DNA of 64,000 nt from Escherichia coli (lineage in GTDB: Bacteria > Pseudomonadota > Gammaproteobacteria > Enterobacterales > Enterobacteriaceae). The stretch is from assembly GCF_003019035.1 (NCBI RefSeq), contig NZ_CP027447.1; one strand, 5' to 3'. Shown here piece by piece: positions 18,817 through 28,513 of this stretch (the stretch's first letter is position 1; the number at the start of each line of letters is the position of its first letter). The position numbers and the translations under genes were made by a program. A model generated the notes under the pieces. It was not told the origin of the DNA. It did not search any database and saw nothing but the letters and a program-made list of their open reading frames with translations.

Positions 18817-20110
18817 GCGTAGAATGTAGACAAAAGCGTGGTGTCAAGGAGGGGAGGGTAACGCAGGGAAAGATTACGAAAGCCCGCTCCCCGCAAGGAC
18901 TGACGCCAGATAGTTTCTGTCCATGGCTGCTTTTCGCATCTTACGTCTTAACCCTGCCTTGAATACCTTATCATTCGTCAAAATATTAATAGCGATGTGC
19001 CGTATCCCTGAAAATAATTCTGCTGCATTTCCTCTTCTTATTTTGCAGTCGTCTTCATTCATTACCACGTCCAGACGCCAGTGCAGCTTATTCTCCACGT
19101 GCCAGTGGTTTCGGATTGCTGTGGCGAACTTCTCTGCGGTTAAATCAGCAGAACTGATATAATATCTGACCGTCATTTCGGGCTCTTTCTTTTGTTCTGC
19201 TATTATTGACCGAAAGGAGACTGCCACGCATAATTTCTTCAGACCTTTCCATTCAAACGTGAAATCAATAAGTTCATCAGGGACATCGCAAACAATGTGA
19301 AGACGGATTTCTTCTCTGCCGTGACTCTTTTCACTCATTGCGTAACTGTCATGCTCTGGATTATTTAATTCTTTCAGCGGAAATTTTTCCTCGAAGGCTT
19401 TATTTAGCCGCCCCTGGTTTCCTTTTACAGCGAATAAATAATCACCTCCCTGTTTTTGTATCTTCTCTGCAATATCTTTCTGGCAACCCATCGCATCAGT
19501 TGTGATGATTTTTCCTTTAATATCCAGCATGTTAAGAAGTTCTTGGATAGCTGTAATCTCATTGGATTTCTCATCCGTCCTGATCTGTCCGATGACCAGA
19601 CTATGCATTGTTGAGAACGCACTAATGACATGAATCGCTCCCTTGCGGCGACTCTTGTCATAAGAGTGCCGGAGCGTTTTTCCATCAATTGCAATGACGC
19701 CTTTATCATCTGAAGAATGGCAGTCACGCATCCAGTTAATAAAGCACTCGTGAAATTTTGCAGGACTGATACAGGATACAACTCTGGCAATGGTATCGTG
19801 AACAGGAATACCATTTTCAAAATCACCATATTGCTTCAAAAAATCGAGATGTGTTTCCCCAAAATCCTCTATATCTTCCCAGCCTTCTGCACCAGAAATA
19901 ACGGCACAAATAGTCAACAGTAGAATATCCGACAATTTATGTTCCACTTTCCAGGCTTGTCTGTACTCGGGAATAACAGAAATATGTTCTATCAATTTTT
20001 TAAGTACCATTTTGTTCTCCTTAATTATGTAAGGAGTATTTGATCATGTATAAGCAATAAAAAACAGCTTCAGGTAATGAGGAATATCTCAATTTTTAAA
20101 CATAAAATGC
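18817..20110 (-). mobile_element. ISAs1-family insertion sequence (Rhs-associated H-repeat, ISEc1-like); boundaries approximate
   Basis: It contains an intact 378-aa transposase. The tentative ends come from an imperfect terminal inverted repeat (gcgtagaatgtagacaaaa at 18817 versus the reverse complement of tttttaaacataaaatgc ending at 20110). By hand this matches at about 12 of 19 positions. It gives about 1.29 kb, which is the size I recall for H-repeat elements. Confidence 0.55.
18874..20010 (-). CDS. ISAs1-family transposase (H repeat-associated protein, YhhI/YdcC/YbfL-like)
   Basis: 378-aa ORF, near-identical over its whole length to the K-12 H-repeat proteins as I remember them (…[44 protein letters not shown]…[20 protein letters not shown]…). 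Confidence 0.93.
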
Positions 20111-20117
20111 GAATTAT

Positions 20118-20834
20118 TTAGTACAAAAAAGCAGCGTTACGTGATCTTTCCCTGTGTAATCCCCCAGCTAAATCATGAACTTTTTGAGCCATTTTACTTA
20201 ATTCAGGGCAGGCTCCTAAACCTAATGGATCTGTGAAGCAACACGGATTCAGCACATAACCATAAGTGTTTAGTCCACCCAATACACCCAGGGGGTCACT
20301 CACCAGATACATCCCGGTCTCCGGCTCGTAGTACCGGAACCGGTTATAGCACAGCCCTGACTCCGCATCCCGCCACTGCCCCGCATACAGCAGACCGGGG
20401 TCCGCTTCTGCGTCTCGCTCCCCGCGCGGGTCCGGGTAGTCCCTGTCTGCGCTGACGCTGAGTGCCAGCCCCCACAGGCTGGTCTGCTCCGCACGCCACA
20501 CCACGTTACCCTGACTGTTAAAGAGCATCACCGGGCGGCCTGTCAGGTCGCTTACCGCATGGCTGGTCCGCGTCACCCACTGCGGGGCCACGGACGGGTG
20601 CGGCTGCCGTACCCGGCTGAACTGCTGGCTTATCAGCTCAAAGCCGTTAAACACCAGGTACCGCACACTGTACAGTTTATCATCGCGGTATTCCCGGATT
20701 TCCGCAATAGTGTCGCCGTCCCACAGATATGTGATGCGGAGGGCTTTTTGTTTGCAGCGTTTCTCTGTCCGTCTGCCACTGGCGTCGTGGCAGTATTCCC
20801 ACTGCTCACCCCGGGCGCTGCGGTAGCCGATCAC
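20118..20834 (-). pseudogene. orphan rhs 3' fragment (core end plus a 32-codon tip), not an independent gene
   Basis: It aligns with residues near the end of the full-length Rhs core (168 of 204 residues identical by hand alignment), including DPLGV..(18)..DPLGL. Homology continues upstream of the first Met to about 20850 with no SD or start context. Only 32 codons follow DPLGL before the stop, which lies 7 nt from the tentative IS end. Confidence 0.8.
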
Positions 20835-20850
20835 GGCTGTCGTGGCGGAA
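20217..20850 (-). repeat. direct repeat copy 1 (rhs core 3' end, orphan copy)
   Basis: About 630 bp, collinear with 21694-22335 in the same orientation. It has one small indel near the upstream end. Confidence 0.8.
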
Positions 20851-20863
20851 CTTTATCTCTTTT

Positions 20864-21253
20864 TTATTTAATCCAGTAAGCTAATCTCTCACCAATCTTC
20901 AAATTTTCTCTTTTGTAATAAAATACAGTATCAAAGTTAATGGATATTTTTTTCGCAATAACTTTGAATTTCAATTCAAATTCCGAATAAAACTCTAATA
21001 CTAACATTTCACGAGCATTGTCAGTGCAACTTGATAGCTTAATAAACTCCTCATTAAGATCGCATGACCAGTCCATAACACCGCTAATATAGCATGGCGT
21101 GTCTATTATTATTTCCAGTGTGTGATAGTAAGAAAGGTCATCACTCCCGGAAATAATCAAGCGATTATGTTCATAAAGAAAAACTGAAAAATCCAACCAA
21201 CTTTCTTTCCAATTATGGTGCTTTATATCATTAATTATGTTTTGCTCACTCAT
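20864..21253 (-). CDS. putative cognate Rhs immunity protein (family unassigned)
   Basis: 129-aa ORF whose ATG overlaps the rhs stop (ATGA at 21250-21253). It shares the AT-rich composition of the toxin tip. It has no signal peptide or TM segment, and its position is typical of rhsI genes. Confidence 0.7.
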   Translation of the reverse strand: MSEQNIINDIKHHNWKESWLDFSVFLYEHNRLIISGSDDLSYYHTLEIIIDTPCYISGVMDWSCDLNEEFIKLSSCTDNAREMLVLEFYSEFELKFKVIAKKISINFDTVFYYKRENLKIGERLAYWIK

Positions 21254-24200
21254 GGAATAGTTCCTGTAGGCAATGGTATATGAGTATCATTTGCAGCTCC
21301 TGGATTATAATTCGGACTTTTAGTTTTCAAATCAGATGTATGATGCCAACTGCCATCAGGAGAACCATACTCCCAACCATAGCCTTGATTAGTCGCAGGA
21401 TTTGTTCCACTTTGGCTTCTACCAATCCTATATATGGGGCCATTGGCAGAATTACTCCCTGCTGGAGCAGTAGGGTTTACATCATGAGCCCTTACTTCAT
21501 ATTTATAATTTCCGACGGTGAATTTTTCTTTAAATTTTATAGGGTAGTTATGCCCAGACAAGCCTTGCCGATGTAAAGCATAATTTAACACATCCTGCGG
21601 TGAGGTATTTTTAATTGCTTGATGCGCTTGTGCTGCTGTCATACCTTGAGAACGATTGTATTTATACCAATCATACATCACAGGACATATAGCTAATCCC
21701 AAAGGATCAACATACCCCAGCGGATTAGGCACATACCGGTAAGTCTGCTCACCCCCCAGCAACCCCAGTGGATCACTCACCAGGTACATCCCGGTTTCCG
21801 GCTCGTAATACCGGAACCGGTTATAGCACAGCCCCGATTCCGCATCCTGCCACTGCCCCGCATACAGCAGGCCGGGGTCGGCTTCCGGGTCCAGCTCCCC
21901 GCGCGGGTCCGGGTAGCCGGTGTCTGCGGGCAGGCTGAGTGCCAGCCCCCACAGGCTGGTCTGCCCCGGTCGCCAGACGGTTTTACCTTCACTGTTAAAG
22001 AGCACCAGCGGACGGCCCGTCAGGTCGCTCACCGCATGATTCGTTCGCGTCACCCACTGCGGGGCCACGGACGGATGCGGCTGCCGTACCCGGCTGAACT
22101 GCTGACTCAGCAGCTCAAAGCCGTTAAACACCAGGTGCCGTACGCTGTACAGTTTATCATCCCGGTATTCCCGCATTTCCGCAATACTGTCGCCGTCCCA
22201 CAGATACGTAAAACGGATTTTCTTCCGGTCGCAGCGTTTTTCCGTCCGCCTGCCGCTGGCGTCGTGGCGGTATTCCCACTGCTCACCCTGTGCGCTGCAA
22301 TACCCGGTCAGCTGGTCCCGGCTGTCCCACCGGAACCGCTCTGTTTCCGGGCGGTAGCCGTCACGGTGTCTGGTGCGGCTGACCATCCGGCCTGCGGCGT
22401 CATAGCTGTAGTCTGTGTTTCCGGTCTGTTTCAGCCGGTGGCCGCGCTGATACATGTCAGTATCCACGCTTATCCGGTGCCTGCCCGCCGACTGCGCCTT
22501 CAGGTAGCCACAACTGTCATAGCCATAGGACTCATCGCCTTCGCCATAGCCCAGCCCGGTGCCTGAGGCTGTCACCGCCGTGACCTGGCCGTTCCGGTCC
22601 AGCCGGTACTCCCGCCGTGTTTCCCGTCCGTAGTCTTCCCGGCTGGTGACAGCCGACATATTGCCCGCGCTGTCGTAACGGTACTCCCGCACCAGTGAGG
22701 GGAGCAGTCCGCCCCATGTGGCTTCCGCCGGGAAAAGTCCGGCGCGCTGGCTGGTAAGCTGACCGGCTGCATTCCAGCCCTGCTCACAGGCAAAACCCCG
22801 GTTACTGTGCCGGAGCACTTCACGTCCTGCCTCATCACGGCTGAACGTCAGCGTCTCATCCCCCGGCAGGATAACCTCCGTCAGTTCTCCGGCGGCGTTG
22901 TAGCGGTAGGTGGTTTTCAGCAGGGATTCACCGGGGTGTCTGTCGCGTTCATCTTCCGGTGGCAGGATACAGCGGATGACGGTGTGTTCATCGGGGTGGT
23001 GGTATTCAATGGCCCGTCGGCCCTGAGTGGTGACATTCACCCGCCCGCGTTCGTCATAGCCGGTGCGCTGTGATGTACCGTCCGGGCTGAAGATACCCGT
23101 CAGCCTGCCGGATTTGTCATAGGCATACTGCGTTTTGCCTTCCGGCGAGATGACTTCTGCCAGGCGGCCTGCGGCGTCCCGGCTGTAGAGGATAGTTTCC
23201 TCCAGGCCGTTAACCCTGGCGGTACAAAGGCCATCGGCGTCATAGCGGTAACGCCAGACCACGCCGCCCCAGTCACGCTCTTCCGTCACCCGTCCACAGT
23301 TGTCCAGAATATAACGGTATGACTCGCCCTGCGGATTGATGACTTCTGTCAGTTGCAGCGTGTCTTTATCGTAGCGGTACTGCCAGCGGTGGCCTTCACC
23401 GTCCGTTCGCGCCACCGGCAAATCGAACGGGCCGTATTCCATCGTCCAGACAACGCCGTTGCCGTCCGTCCAGGCCAGCAGGTTGCCGTGGCGGTCATAG
23501 CGAAATCCTTCCGCGCCGGTGCCAGTGCGTTCAAGGCCGCTCAGTTTATGGTGCTGCTGCCACCGTAACCGCACTGACTGACCGCCGGGGCCGCGCATCT
23601 TCACCGGCAGGTCGTGACCGCTGTATTCGGTGTGGTGTTCACGGCCCATCACGTCGGTGAGTGTTTCCGGCCGGTTGTGGTGGTCGTACTCTATGCCCAG
23701 ACGCCGTTCATCCTGGCGGAATATCCCCGACAGCAGCCCCTGCGGCGTGTACGCCAGCCGGGTCTCTTCGCCCTGTGGCGACACCAGACTTACCGGCAGG
23801 CCGCGTTCATCACACTGCTGCGTCCACATCTGCCCGGCAGGGTCGGTGATGTTGCTGAGCAGGCCGCGCTCATCATAGCAGTACTGCCACTCCGCACCGT
23901 CTGCCGCCGTGTAACGGCTTAACTGACCGTGTGCGGCGTTGTATTCAAACTTCTCCACCCGCCCGGCAGGGGAGTGGCGGGCCAGCAGGTGATGGAATTC
24001 ATCCCATTCATACATGGTGGTGCTGCCGTCCGGCGCTGCTTCCCGCAGAATATTGCCGTCAGGATCATAGTAATAACGGTGAATGCCCTTGCCGTCCGTC
24101 ACGGTGGTGCAGCCGTCACCATAGTCCAGCGTGGCGTTGTAATAGCCCTCCGCCCCGGTGACGGTCACGCACCGGCCCTGTGCATCGTAGGTGAAACGGC

Positions 24201-26103
24201 TCCACGTCTGGTCGTTATCGGACCAGCGGATGATCCGGTCCGCAGCGTCGTACTCATAAAACAGGTGGTAGTCCAGCCGCGCATCCGCTTCTGTCAGCCG
24301 CCCCCGCGCATCCTGTTCGTAGGTCGCCAGCATCTGTATGCCGTTATCCGTACGGTGAATGGCTTTCAGGTAGCCGCTGGCATGGTACGTCAGTTTAAGC
24401 CGGATCCCGTCGGTGTGACTGACACCCATGATGCGGTACTGGCTGTCGCGCTCAAACGTGATGCGGTTGCTGGCGGTGTCGCTCATCCCGCCCAGCATGT
24501 ACATCCGGTCTGCGGGGCTGTGTGCCAGACGGTCATCGCAGGTATCGTCAGTCACCGGGTGGCGCAGGCGCATTCCCGGAAAGGCGTCATAAAAGAAGCG
24601 GCTGCTCAGTGCATCACGGTCGAACAGCTCCAGGTAATCGTCGCGGCGGCGCAGAATGTACTGGGCGTGATACGGGTTAACCGCCGTATCACTGTCACCG
24701 TCGAAGGCAAATCTCAGCGTGGTTCCCTGGCTGATGATATCCACCCGGTTTCCCTGTTCACGCACCCAGGCGTATTCGCTCCAGGAGTCGCTCCAGCCCA
24801 CGCCCGTCAGACCATGCAGCGGCAGTACAGAACTGTGGAAACGGGTGAAGGAGAGGGGGAGTGTCTGGCCCAGCGTAAAGTCGGTACGTTCGTCGCAGTA
24901 TGCGCCGGTTACCGGATCGACAGGATCTGTTACCCATCTGATGACTTTATTGGCAATACTTTTTAACGACTTACCTGTTTTCCCCAGCAACGCGCCGAGC
25001 TTTGCCCCCAGCAGCTTCCCGCTTTTCCCCAGCAGGTTTCCCAGTTTGCCGAGTTTCGCCAGATTCCCCAGTTTTCCCAGCAGTCCCGCGGGCGGCAGAA
25101 GATAGCTGGCTATCGTTATTCCCCCCAGGATCATTCTCTGCCACGGCGGGAACTCCGGCTGGATATCCAGATAGGTCACCTGTTCACCGCCAATAAAGAC
25201 GTCCGGCGAACCTTCCACGATTGCCGCGCTGCACTCCAGTTTGTCCCCTTTGCGTGCGGCAGTCTGATTGTTGATAAAGACGTTGCTGCTGCCCTGGGCT
25301 ATCCTCGGTGGTTTGTTCTCCTTGTCGCAGAGCGCCGTGTCCTCACCGGCTTCCGGGAAATCCACGTCTTTTTTGATTTCGCCACGCCCGCCCACCATGG
25401 TGGCAAACTCCATTAATACCGGACCGGCGGGAAACAGAAGCGATGCGCCGGCGCTGACGCGATCCATAATACCGGCATTGCTGTCCGTCAGGGTGATAAC
25501 AGCGTTCCCCCAGGCCTTCGCCAGTGGTACTGCTTTTTCCGCTGCCGATTCAAGCAGGTCAGTGGCAATATCACCCCATGAGGGTTCCCCCTGTGGTGGA
25601 GAGGGTATTGCTTCAGTCAGGGGAGGAGGGGGAAGGGTGACGGCGGCCCTGGCAGCGGGCTTTCCGTTAATGTTTACATTTTTAGAACCAGTATTGATGG
25701 CCCCGTCCGTGTCACAAAAACTGTTTATCCATGATTCAAGCTGGTTCTGTTTCTCCTCCACATAATCACTCGCCTTATAGCTGGCATACATCAGCGCAGG
25801 CACCAGAACCAGCGCATAAGGGCCGGTGGCACAGGCGGCCATAATCAGGCAACCTTCTGCGATGGTCACTATCGCCCCCAGCACGGCCCCTGCCAGCGCC
25901 CCCAAAAAACTCTTGTGCTGAATTTCATCGCCCAGCCTGGCTGCGGGGGGGCCAGACTTTTTTGATGCCAACATCTGTGCAATGGCTTTGTCGTTGGCTG
26001 CCCGTTTCATCTGGCTGGCGACCATCGCCTGCTGTGACAGCATTCGCATTGCCAGCGTACCGCCTGCGGTCGCTCCCTGTGGCCCGCCTGGTCCTTCACT
26101 CAT
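21250..26103 (-). CDS. rhs: T6SS prePAAR/PAAR-Rhs polymorphic toxin (1617 aa) with a 147-aa variable C-terminal toxin domain
   Basis: The N-terminus carries the prePAAR motif AARLGDEIQH and two hydrophobic helices. PAAR-like motifs follow (INGKPAARA, INNQTAARKGD, VFIGGE). The Rhs core starts at RWVTDPVDPVTGAY and contains many YD repeats. The core ends at DPLGLLGGEQTYRYVPNPLGYVDPLGL, followed by an unrelated AT-rich tip (21253-21693). Confidence 0.93.
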   Translation of the reverse strand: MSEGPGGPQGATAGGTLAMRMLSQQAMVASQMKRAANDKAIAQMLASKKSGPPAARLGDEIQHKSFLGALAGAVLGAIVTIAEGCLIMAACATGPYALVLVPALMYASYKASDYVEEKQNQLESWINSFCDTDGAINTGSKNVNINGKPAARAAVTLPPPPLTEAIPSPPQGEPSWGDIATDLLESAAEKAVPLAKAWGNAVITLTDSNAGIMDRVSAGASLLFPAGPVLMEFATMVGGRGEIKKDVDFPEAGEDTALCDKENKPPRIAQGSSNVFINNQTAARKGDKLECSAAIVEGSPDVFIGGEQVTYLDIQPEFPPWQRMILGGITIASYLLPPAGLLGKLGNLAKLGKLGNLLGKSGKLLGAKLGALLGKTGKSLKSIANKVIRWVTDPVDPVTGAYCDERTDFTLGQTLPLSFTRFHSSVLPLHGLTGVGWSDSWSEYAWVREQGNRVDIISQGTTLRFAFDGDSDTAVNPYHAQYILRRRDDYLELFDRDALSSRFFYDAFPGMRLRHPVTDDTCDDRLAHSPADRMYMLGGMSDTASNRITFERDSQYRIMGVSHTDGIRLKLTYHASGYLKAIHRTDNGIQMLATYEQDARGRLTEADARLDYHLFYEYDAADRIIRWSDNDQTWSRFTYDAQGRCVTVTGAEGYYNATLDYGDGCTTVTDGKGIHRYYYDPDGNILREAAPDGSTTMYEWDEFHHLLARHSPAGRVEKFEYNAAHGQLSRYTAADGAEWQYCYDERGLLSNITDPAGQMWTQQCDERGLPVSLVSPQGEETRLAYTPQGLLSGIFRQDERRLGIEYDHHNRPETLTDVMGREHHTEYSGHDLPVKMRGPGGQSVRLRWQQHHKLSGLERTGTGAEGFRYDRHGNLLAWTDGNGVVWTMEYGPFDLPVARTDGEGHRWQYRYDKDTLQLTEVINPQGESYRYILDNCGRVTEERDWGGVVWRYRYDADGLCTARVNGLEETILYSRDAAGRLAEVISPEGKTQYAYDKSGRLTGIFSPDGTSQRTGYDERGRVNVTTQGRRAIEYHHPDEHTVIRCILPPEDERDRHPGESLLKTTYRYNAAGELTEVILPGDETLTFSRDEAGREVLRHSNRGFACEQGWNAAGQLTSQRAGLFPAEATWGGLLPSLVREYRYDSAGNMSAVTSREDYGRETRREYRLDRNGQVTAVTASGTGLGYGEGDESYGYDSCGYLKAQSAGRHRISVDTDMYQRGHRLKQTGNTDYSYDAAGRMVSRTRHRDGYRPETERFRWDSRDQLTGYCSAQGEQWEYRHDASGRRTEKRCDRKKIRFTYLWDGDSIAEMREYRDDKLYSVRHLVFNGFELLSQQFSRVRQPHPSVAPQWVTRTNHAVSDLTGRPLVLFNSEGKTVWRPGQTSLWGLALSLPADTGYPDPRGELDPEADPGLLYAGQWQDAESGLCYNRFRYYEPETGMYLVSDPLGLLGGEQTYRYVPNPLGYVDPLGLAICPVMYDWYKYNRSQGMTAAQAHQAIKNTSPQDVLNYALHRQGLSGHNYPIKFKEKFTVGNYKYEVRAHDVNPTAPAGSNSANGPIYRIGRSQSGTNPATNQGYGWEYGSPDGSWHHTSDLKTKSPNYNPGAANDTHIPLPTGTIP
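21694..22335 (-). repeat. direct repeat copy 2 (rhs core 3' end, in the full-length gene)
   Basis: Homologous to 20217-20850; see the orphan fragment. Confidence 0.8.
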
Positions 26104-26122
26104 GTGTTATCCCTCGTTTATG

Positions 26123-26584
26123 TCAGCGCGGCTGGTCCTTTTGGATGTCATTCTCCGGTGGCAACGGGGTGAAGCTCTTTATCACCTCCAGCAGCATCGT
26201 CTTTTGACTGTTCTTCAGGGATAAGGAGGTGCTGAAAGTGAAGGTCAGCAGCGTATCTCCACGCCGCTGGAATACGGCTATCTGGCTAATCCGCCCCTGA
26301 TTCCCTTCATCTTCCGGACCGTTCCAGGAATAATCCAGCAGCCAGGCCGGGGCCTCTGCCAGAGTGATTTCCCGGCAGGCATGTTCGGTGTACCCATCAA
26401 GTTTGCCCTGGTACAGCGCCAGCGTTTCCTGGTACAGCTCTGGTGTCAGGGTTCCCTGTGGAACGGCTTCGCGGGTAATGACCAGGTTGATGCCACTGTT
26501 ATCTGTGGACACCAGGACCTGCATTGACTGATCCTGCCATTGAGACGGCAGTTGAATGTGGCCTTCATTAAAAGTGAACTGCAT
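26123..26584 (-). CDS. DUF1795 (DcrB-like) Eag-family effector chaperone
   Basis: 153-aa ORF (MQFTFNEGHIQLPSQWQDQSMQVLV...) located between vgrG and the prePAAR-Rhs gene, with an AGGGAG SD. Its size, N-terminal pattern and position are typical of EagR/SciW chaperones. Confidence 0.8.
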   Translation of the reverse strand: MQFTFNEGHIQLPSQWQDQSMQVLVSTDNSGINLVITREAVPQGTLTPELYQETLALYQGKLDGYTEHACREITLAEAPAWLLDYSWNGPEDEGNQGRISQIAVFQRRGDTLLTFTFSTSLSLKNSQKTMLLEVIKSFTPLPPENDIQKDQPR

Positions 26585-26611
26585 AAAATACTCCCTGTTA
26601 ATCTGAGTGAA

Positions 26612-28513
26612 TCAGTTGATGAAAACAGAACCGCCCACGATGGTGATGCCATCCTTCGACAGCCTGATTACCGTCGATTCCCCGACCTGTAGCTGTATGC
26701 CATCCGGCGTCAGCGCAATTTTGCTTTCCTCCACGGCCAGCAAAATTTCCTTAATCGCCGTATAAGCCTGTATACCGTCGCCTTCGCCACCATTGTTTAC
26801 AGCGTCAACATGCACCGAACCGGCAATCGTGCCTCTGTCCTGAAAGACATCCTCAGATAAAGACCCTTTCAGTACTCCGGTGATCTTGTGGCCTTTTTCC
26901 ACCGTAAGAAGGCGGTTACCTTCCTGGATCGTGACCGTCTGGTCATTTTTTACGGTTTCGCGGTGATCGTGTTTTACGGTGGTGGTACGGTCGTTGAGCA
27001 CTTCGGTATCCATGTTCTTCTGCGCGTGGATGTAGACCTGTTCTCTCCCTGTCGCATCATCAAACTTCAGCTCATTAAATCCGCTGCCCATGTACGTTTT
27101 GGAGCGGATGGTCATCTGCGTCTTTGTTCCCGGCAGGCTGCCGGGGGTGCGGTTTTCCTGGTGGTAGGTGCGCCCCATAATGATCGGCTGGTCCGGATCG
27201 CCGTTGAGGAAGTCTACAATCACTTCCTGACCCACACGCGGTATCGCCAGGTGGCCAAAACCGGTGCCTGCCCACGCCTGTGCCACACGGATCCAGCACG
27301 AACTGTCTTGGTCTGCCGGGTTATAACGGTCCCAGTTGAACTTCACCCGCACGCGACCATGTTCGTCGCAGAAGATTTCCTCGCCTGCCGGTCCTGTCAC
27401 GACAGCGCTCTGCGGGCCGTCGACCAGCGGTTTCAGCAACGGCTGTGGTCGCCATGTTCTGTCTGCCGGGATCACCGCAAAATGGTTCTCCAGCGCCGTC
27501 CCCGCTCCCTGCCGTCCTGGCACCGCCTGTGGCTGTTCGCCGTGCAGTTCACTTGCCACCACCTGCCATTCCCGGTTCAGGTTCGCCTGCGGATGCCCCG
27601 TCAGCACAATTCGTCGTCCCGGCCATATCTCCGGCGAGCGACTCATTCCCCGCGCGGTTTCTGCATTGTTTCGCCAGCCGTCCATCTGCCAGCGGGCAAA
27701 GTTCTGCCCGTGGGCACCCTTGAAACGTCCGGGGTAGTCATACACTTCATACTGCGTGCGCTGGTAGTCCTGGTGCTGGCCTTCCTGTTCAAAACGTCCG
27801 GCCCAGCCGGGGCGTTTAAAGGTGTAGTCTTTGGTCACCACGGAAGAAGGGCGGATTTGTGCGCTGTAGCGGAACTGGCTGATGCAGAGGGTGCTCACCT
27901 CGGTACGGGTGTTCGGGTTCCATGGGATTTCAAAAGATTCGGGCAGATGGCGGACTGTGTCGCACAGCACCAGGCTCTGGTCGGTACTTTTGTAAGCATG
28001 CTCCTCATAAAAGAAGATGCCTTCCTCCGCCGCCATCCGGCACAGGAAATCGTAATCAGTCTCACCGTACTGGACACAAAACTCACGGGAAGGATGCGGC
28101 TCGCTGAACAGCGGACTCCATTCGGTCACCCCGTTTTCCTGCAACATCGTGCCGAGGATGCTTTTGATGTCCTCGTTCTGGAAGATACGGAAGTTCTGGC
28201 GCAGACCGGCACGCCACAGCGGCGGGTGCACCTTCATGCTGTACAGCATCTGGTTTTTGTCGTTCTCCCCCAGTTCAAACCAGGTCACCACGCCTTTCAC
28301 CCGGCGCTGTACTTCATCGCCCTGCCATATCGTCAGGTAGGCCATTTTGTCCAGCACCTGCGCAAATTCAAGGGAGAGAAACTGCTGGCTGACCAGGGAG
28401 AGATCGAGGGAAAAGAGCGAAGAGAGTGACTGGTTCAGATGAAAGGAAACCACCGCAAAAGCATCCGGCGGCAGGCCGTCCACTTCCAGTGTGAAACGTA
28501 ATCCGGTTGACAT
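26612..28513 (-). CDS. vgrG: T6SS spike protein VgrG
   Basis: 633-aa ORF with a gp27-like N-terminus (MSTGLRFTLEVDGLP...) and a gp5-like OB and beta-helix region (VGQEVIVDFLNGDPDQPIIMGRTYH). A GGAGG SD lies 8 nt upstream. Confidence 0.93.
   Translation of the reverse strand: MSTGLRFTLEVDGLPPDAFAVVSFHLNQSLSSLFSLDLSLVSQQFLSLEFAQVLDKMAYLTIWQGDEVQRRVKGVVTWFELGENDKNQMLYSMKVHPPLWRAGLRQNFRIFQNEDIKSILGTMLQENGVTEWSPLFSEPHPSREFCVQYGETDYDFLCRMAAEEGIFFYEEHAYKSTDQSLVLCDTVRHLPESFEIPWNPNTRTEVSTLCISQFRYSAQIRPSSVVTKDYTFKRPGWAGRFEQEGQHQDYQRTQYEVYDYPGRFKGAHGQNFARWQMDGWRNNAETARGMSRSPEIWPGRRIVLTGHPQANLNREWQVVASELHGEQPQAVPGRQGAGTALENHFAVIPADRTWRPQPLLKPLVDGPQSAVVTGPAGEEIFCDEHGRVRVKFNWDRYNPADQDSSCWIRVAQAWAGTGFGHLAIPRVGQEVIVDFLNGDPDQPIIMGRTYHQENRTPGSLPGTKTQMTIRSKTYMGSGFNELKFDDATGREQVYIHAQKNMDTEVLNDRTTTVKHDHRETVKNDQTVTIQEGNRLLTVEKGHKITGVLKGSLSEDVFQDRGTIAGSVHVDAVNNGGEGDGIQAYTAIKEILLAVEESKIALTPDGIQLQVGESTVIRLSKDGITIVGGSVFIN

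Follow-up and report, generated by a model that had tools for sequence, protein, structure and literature searches.

A predicted immunity gene coupled to an Ntox30 Rhs effector gene of Escherichia coli, and the uncatalogued protein family to which it belongs

Introduction

Toxin-immunity pairs of the Rhs and type VI secretion system (T6SS) kind decide which Escherichia coli strains displace others in the gut. The question raised by the locus described here is whether a small open reading frame (ORF) lying directly behind an rhs toxin gene encodes the cognate immunity protein, and which toxin domain that protein would serve. The ORF, of 129 codons, is located in a stretch of 64,000 nucleotides from E. 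coli (assembly GCF_003019035.1, contig NZ_CP027447.1), which as a whole is called the window below. A preliminary description of this DNA, made from its letters, had proposed a cognate immunity gene translationally coupled to the Rhs toxin and belonging to no recognised family. Our analysis supports that proposal by synteny across phyla and toxin scaffolds, by orphan copies, by co-occurrence in 120 of 120 genomes and by a fold like that of the immunity protein PIM7. We put at about 0.85 the probability that the ORF encodes the cognate immunity protein of the Ntox30 domain carried by the adjacent T6SS prePAAR/PAAR-Rhs effector.

Results

Position, coupling and composition of the ORF

The features needed to follow the argument are these, with positions counted in the window and the kind of evidence in brackets:

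20864..21253, minus strand: predicted immunity protein gene, 129 aa (ORF call, homology and model)
21250..26103, minus strand: prePAAR/PAAR-DUF6531-RHS-repeat-Ntox30 effector gene, 1617 aa (Pfam and Prokaryotic Genome Annotation Pipeline, PGAP)
21253..21693, minus strand: C-terminal toxin tip, 147 aa, with the Ntox30 domain, after the DPLGL cleavage motif (Pfam and alignment)
21262..21265, minus strand: putative Shine-Dalgarno-like motif AGGA (read from sequence)

The ORF begins inside the stop of the rhs gene, as described before, and its coordinates, the overlap and the quoted protein sequence all agree with our own reading: the tetranucleotide ATGA at 21253-21250 holds both the ATG of the ORF (21253-21251) and the TGA of rhs (21252-21250). 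The AGGA motif lies 8 nt upstream of this ATG, within the end of the toxin gene. The position is thus what the genomic definition of a polymorphic-toxin immunity gene describes, namely a small ORF on the same strand directly downstream of the C-terminal domain of the toxin. The AT-rich composition said to be common to the ORF and the toxin tip is found as well, with a GC content of 31% for the ORF and of 40% for the tip, which takes up the final 441 nt of rhs; the corresponding values are 61% for the rhs core and 52% for the window as a whole. The 129-aa protein is acidic, with an isoelectric point (pI) of 5.0, and a hydrophobic helix, whose absence had been noted, is indeed not found, the maximum of the Kyte-Doolittle score over 19-residue windows being 0.84.

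Scans for promoters and terminators gave nothing clearly above expectation, with 7 promoter-like sites in the region vs 3.5 +/- 1.8 in shuffled sequences. As a separate observation, a sigma-70-like hexamer pair, TTGTCT-16-TAAAAT, is located at 21534-21561 on the minus strand, inside the toxin tip, with about 280 nt between it and the immunity ATG downstream; judged by its letters, this pair could be an internal promoter giving immunity expression independent of the toxin.

The adjacent toxin carries Ntox30

On the effector, Pfam recognises prePAAR (weakly), PAAR, DUF6531, RHS repeats and Ntox30. In the last 183 residues Ntox30 (PF15532) is the only match at E<=1, with E 3.9e-12 and 46.8 bits vs a gathering cut-off of 25, and close homologues of the toxin are labelled by NCBI as "polymorphic toxin type 30 domain-containing protein". 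The tip had earlier been taken for a WHH-type toxin, which is incorrect, WHH giving no match at the same threshold. The expectation of a SUKH immunity partner that had been drawn from the WHH assignment therefore never applied, since the toxin is Ntox30. The candidate WHH motif itself, within SWHHTS, was considered and rejected: W116 is kept among homologues, and positions 117/118 vary (HH, YH, DH, HK, YK).

The Ntox30 signature has been given as "RxH, R, THIP" (Zhang et al. 2012, PMC3482391), and all its elements are conserved here as R68-A-H70, R89/R92 and T137-H-I-P140. Aligned with nine homologues, the tip shows conservation of R68, H70, GSNS 79-82, R89, R92, W107, E108, K123, N135, D136 and HIP 138-140. 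The tip is basic, with pI 9.2. Ntox30 was predicted to be a metal-independent RNase, and the table of the same 2012 study contains no immunity family for it (PMC3482391); the domain is still given as uncharacterised in a 2023 review. A literature search for "polymorphic toxin type 30" gave nothing useful, and a profile search of the PDB with the toxin alignment matched only the end of the Rhs core.

A broad and uncatalogued family

A word-indexed search found 67 homologous clusters with 47-99% identity and a conserved start, all from Enterobacterales, all named "hypothetical" and none with Pfam domains. The genera among these close relatives are Escherichia, Kluyvera, Citrobacter, Yersinia, Lonsdalea, Kosakonia, Pectobacterium and Brenneria, to which a further search added Budvicia. 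An exhaustive profile search over 1.84 billion representatives (50%-identity) extended the family to 300 representatives at E<=1e-3, with 91 at E<=1e-10, most of them of 125-150 aa. Two motifs run through the whole family, L-x-I-x-G-S-x-D-x-x-Y-Y-H-x-x-E at residues 32-47 and V-Y-Y-Y-x-R-E-N-L-x-x-G-E-R-I-A-x-W at residues 110-127, while residues 1-20 and 60-95 are variable, with insertions and deletions at 66-69 and 75-85. The ORF is a real, conserved gene.

The family had been called unrecognised, and the libraries bear this out: the 129-aa protein has no match in Pfam at E<=1 and none in NCBIfam, PHROGs or PADLOC. A Pfam scan of 103 family members gave no shared family, only six scattered matches of single members. 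The earlier impression that the protein is neither barstar-like nor of the SUKH type also stands, for none of the 103 relatives matches a SUKH (SMI1_KNR4) model at E<=0.01, and neither the Pfam barstar model nor the Pfam Imm families are matched by the protein or the scanned relatives. The family is broad, uncatalogued and not in curated libraries.

Linkage to Ntox30 in other lineages

Members of the family were found directly behind Ntox30 toxins in the following places:

Kosakonia cowanii: VgrG-DcrB-PAAR-Rhs-Ntox30, then a family member, with a 4-nt overlap
Lonsdalea quercina: Rhs-Ntox30, then a family member, with a 4-nt overlap
Citrobacter sedlakii: Ntox30 toxin, then a family member, with a 4-nt overlap
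Pectobacterium sp.: Ntox30 toxin, then a family member, with a 4-nt overlap
Microbulbifer sp.: orphan Rhs-CT-Ntox30, then a family member, 36% identical, after a 6-nt gap
Polyangium aurulentum (Myxococcota): Rhs-Ntox30, then a family member, 32% identical
Coral-metagenome contig: very large non-Rhs PT-HINT toxin with an Ntox30 domain, then a family member

The gene thus follows its toxin domain across PAAR-Rhs, orphan Rhs-CT and PT-HINT scaffolds; since it stands behind Ntox30 on PT-HINT and Rhs scaffolds alike, it goes with the toxin domain, whichever machine serves for delivery. Toxin and immunity identities also rise and fall together across the syntenic loci, which speaks for a cognate pair. 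Where both partners come from Enterobacterales, divergence is greater in the immunity protein (e.g. toxin 86% vs immunity 71%).

Two details of the coral-metagenome contig may be noted on their own. In the PT-HINT toxin (L025 1-6894) the Ntox30 domain is internal and about 190 unassigned C-terminal residues follow, and the gene 5 nt downstream encodes 297 aa with the family domain at the C-terminus, after about 170 unassigned residues. The pair may be a double-toxin, double-immunity fusion.

In Pectobacterium, Brenneria and Kluyvera (loci L003, L005, L006, L008), orphan copies are embedded in arrays of rhs C-terminal fragments. Upstream of the orphan of Kluyvera (L003 5900-6420) a 34-residue C-terminal end of an Ntox30 tip survives; a side observation in this protein is a (SD)n repeat expansion (…EFYSDSDSDSDSDSDSELKF…) in its variable region. 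Two loci of E. fergusonii (L016, L017) hold an orphan copy of 54-56% amino-acid identity beside an ISAs1 element.

Distribution in E. coli

Of 5426 complete E. coli genomes, 120 have the toxin tip, always at >=99% identity, and the 1.1-kb segment of toxin plus immunity gene is in the same 120, so that 120/120 tip carriers hold the gene. Carriers of the module make up about 2% of complete E. coli genomes and include human, animal and wastewater isolates; in many of these chromosomes the 1.1-kb segment is 100% identical. Another 13 E. coli genomes have only a toxin-less copy, 60-80% identical in nucleotides, and together with those of E. fergusonii these toxin-less copies look like acquired orphan immunity genes.

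Predicted structure

The AlphaFold2 (AF2) model of the 129-aa protein, built from a 34-sequence alignment, has a predicted local distance difference test score (pLDDT) of 82 and a predicted template modelling score (pTM) of 0.75. It consists of an N-terminal helix at residues 3-11 and then about nine beta strands. A Foldseek search with the model, a check proposed in the preliminary description, gave as best structural relative a solved immunity protein, PIM7 (PDB 8OWU), at E 1.3e-2. What had been suggested as an undescribed immunity family is accordingly new in the sense of being uncurated; it is not structurally unprecedented, because its fold resembles that of PIM7. Profile searches of the PDB with the 34- and 103-member family alignments gave no meaningful match.

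It may be added that the model is least confident in segment 111-129 (20864-20920, minus strand), which belongs to the best-conserved stretch of the family and has a pLDDT of about 55; going by the model, toxin binding may be needed to order this segment.

The locus and its surroundings

The remaining genes of the island are the following:

26612..28513, minus strand: VgrG spike gene of an orphan vgrG-eagR-rhs module (Pfam Phage_GPD/Gp5, and PGAP)
26123..26584, minus strand: DcrB/DUF1795 (EagR-type) chaperone gene (Pfam and PGAP)
20118..20851, minus strand: orphan rhs C-terminal fragment (PGAP, as partial RHS pseudogene, and blastn)
18874..20010, minus strand: ISAs1-family (H-repeat) transposase, DDE_Tnp_1, which ends the island (Pfam and PGAP)

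In strain FDAARGOS_497 the order annotated by PGAP is cusS, VgrG, DcrB-related, RHS core protein, hypothetical protein (the ORF), partial RHS pseudogene, ISAs1 transposase, nfrB and nfrA. The island of vgrG, eagR, rhs, immunity gene, orphan fragment and ISAs1 (18874-28513, with flanks to about 31000) sits between nfrB and cusS, which we take to be adjacent in E. coli K-12. The distance of 13 bp reported earlier between the end of the ORF and the orphan rhs homology is correct, the stop ending at 20864 and the homology resuming at 20851, twelve bases after the stop; it resumes with an 8-nt deletion, by which the frame is shifted. By ungapped blastn, 20833..20287 aligns with 22310..21764 of the main rhs gene at 86.5% identity. 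The toxin tip of the orphan fragment itself stops about 35 aa after DPLGL, beside the ISAs1 (H-repeat) transposase, and no orphan immunity gene follows this fragment before nfrB. The nfrB homologue in NZ_CP033850.1 (L001 12125-14362) is named "nrfB" by RefSeq while its product text reads c-di-GMP-activated glycosyltransferase, and the name looks like an annotation slip.

Discussion

How the pair would work

We infer binding, occlusion of the active site and the toxin activity itself, and the following scheme should be read in this way. Immunity protein and toxin would be translated off one mRNA by the stop/start coupling at ATGA, and therefore every cell that makes the toxin would make the antidote too. 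By analogy with known pairs, an acidic, soluble, cytoplasmic protein would bind the basic tip at about 1:1 and block its active or substrate-binding site, so that the producer and its kin would be protected from toxin made internally or injected by sister cells. Specificity probably resides in the variable N-terminal helix and loop (1-20) and in the loop 66-86, while the motifs GSxDxxYYHxxE (36-47) and VYYYxRENLxxGERIAxW (110-127) may form the core of the family or contact conserved catalytic residues. As to the target, a weak structural hint points to the DNase PT7, which makes DNA a possible substrate.

Alternative explanations

The immunity protein might be left over from an earlier tip displaced by recombination, in which case the neighbouring toxin would not be its target. 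Rhs loci do swap tips by recombination and orphan copies of the family exist; however, at least seven independent lineages, besides the coral-metagenome toxin, show the gene paired with Ntox30, frequently by way of the 4-nt overlap seen here, and a leftover would not track one toxin domain as the gene does in the 120/120 E. coli toxin carriers. We regard such a displaced origin as highly improbable.

It is very unlikely, too, that the protein serves the effector as an accessory factor, i.e. a chaperone, adaptor or activator for the tip, instead of inhibiting it. Its place in the effector operon would fit this role, inhibition by the protein is a prediction, and model confidence is low for the most conserved segment, 110-127, which is also seen in proteins that take up their fold on contact with a partner. 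But a chaperone of the DcrB/EagR kind is already encoded upstream in the module, the structure closest to the protein is that of an immunity protein, and the gene follows Ntox30 on PT-HINT as well as Rhs scaffolds, i.e. it tracks the toxin domain; moreover, toxin-less orphans in the arrays and in 13 E. coli genomes would be unexpected for a delivery factor.

The last alternative, that the ORF arose by chance in AT-rich DNA and yields no protein, could appeal to its being short, AT-rich and labelled merely "hypothetical protein" by PGAP, but is effectively refuted already by conservation (67 clusters of homologues that are full-length, keep the start and stop and are conserved at the level of amino acids, and 300 representatives at E<=1e-3 that reach other phyla), with a confident AF2 fold besides.

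Points that weigh against a cognate immunity protein

Several observations count against reading the ORF as the cognate immunity gene of the neighbouring T6SS effector, or limit the weight of the evidence for it. The likeness to PIM7 holds at the fold level only, with 11-13% identity at the Foldseek E of 1.3e-2, and in sequence neither the 34-member nor the 103-member profile of the family matches PIM7 (8OWU) at E<=10. No T6SS core cluster is found within the window, and for this reason delivery of the toxin in this strain is assumed. Lone copies far from any recognisable toxin occur in Providencia and on metagenomic contigs, which fits orphan immunity without proving it. The 120/120 co-occurrence in E. 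coli is partly due to physical adjacency and shared phylogeny. Pairwise identities of toxin and immunity protein co-vary with r = 0.95 over 21 pairs from 7 syntenic loci, much of which is due to shared phylogeny and part to physical adjacency.

Significance

Pipelines label the family "hypothetical protein" because it is absent from Pfam and NCBIfam. As the cognate family it would supply the missing immunity partner for Ntox30. Once defined, the family would allow automatic annotation of Ntox30 immunity genes and of orphan immunity islands and give a marker for toxin-immunity profiling of metagenomes; the Ntox30 domain could be purified as a complex with its partner, and its activity could then be determined. 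Such a gene and such a logic are textbook matter, any T6SS specialist would think of an immunity gene from the position alone, and the gain is incremental.

Comparison with known systems

The nearest precedents in layout are the vgrG-eagR-PAAR-Rhs-CT/CTI modules of E. coli (Ma et al. 2017, as summarised in PMC6730261 and PMC9635880), which have the same order of an orphan vgrG, DUF1795/EagR, a PAAR-Rhs protein with variable tip and a small immunity gene. In these summaries Ntox30 is among the toxin domains linked to the modules, and Rhs-CT1, CT3 and CT5 with their immunities are given by the review as the only ones tested experimentally (PMC6730261, PMC9635880). The original study may already list the Ntox30 tip and its immunity partner as a pair by number.

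The SUKH and Imm families (Zhang et al. 2012, PMC3482391) belong to the same functional class and follow the same genomic logic as the 129-aa protein, which has no Pfam match to them. The model of the 129-aa protein is mostly beta strand. The SUKH fold, in contrast, is of the alpha+beta type. Another structure for comparison is PDB 5V77, an uncharacterised protein of Neisseria gonorrhoeae with 8-15% identity to the 129-aa protein, for which a literature search found no paper.

The closest solved structure remains PIM7, the immunity protein of the polymorphic toxin PT7 of Bacillus cereus (PDB 8OWU; Nachmias et al., bioRxiv 10.1101/2021.10.19.465003). The modelled protein has the same fold; common ancestry of the two is unproven. 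PT7 itself is an endo-DNase that depends on Mg and lacks RNase activity on tRNA; the negative surface of PIM7 occludes the active site of the toxin, D17 on the alpha1-betaA loop touching catalytic residues, and the binding residues of PIM7 are conserved only in part (bioRxiv 10.1101/2021.10.19.465003). The two pairs differ in that PT7 is an LXG toxin of the type VII secretion system (T7SS) and a DNase, whereas the partner of the 129-aa protein is a T6SS Rhs tip with Ntox30, a predicted metal-independent RNase. A tentative and on the whole doubtful extension of our reading would be that the 129-aa protein founds a phylum-spanning immunity family dedicated to Ntox30, that the Ntox30 pair is a remote homologue of PT7-PIM7, and that Ntox30 domains have the PT7 fold and are Mg-dependent DNases, which the immunity protein would neutralise by occluding the active site with its variable N-terminal helix-loop. 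If true, the link would question the RNase prediction. Complementary charge also speaks for the pairing of ORF and tip: the 129-aa protein is acidic (pI 5.0) vs a basic tip (pI 9.2), and PIM7 likewise turns a negative surface toward the active site of its toxin.
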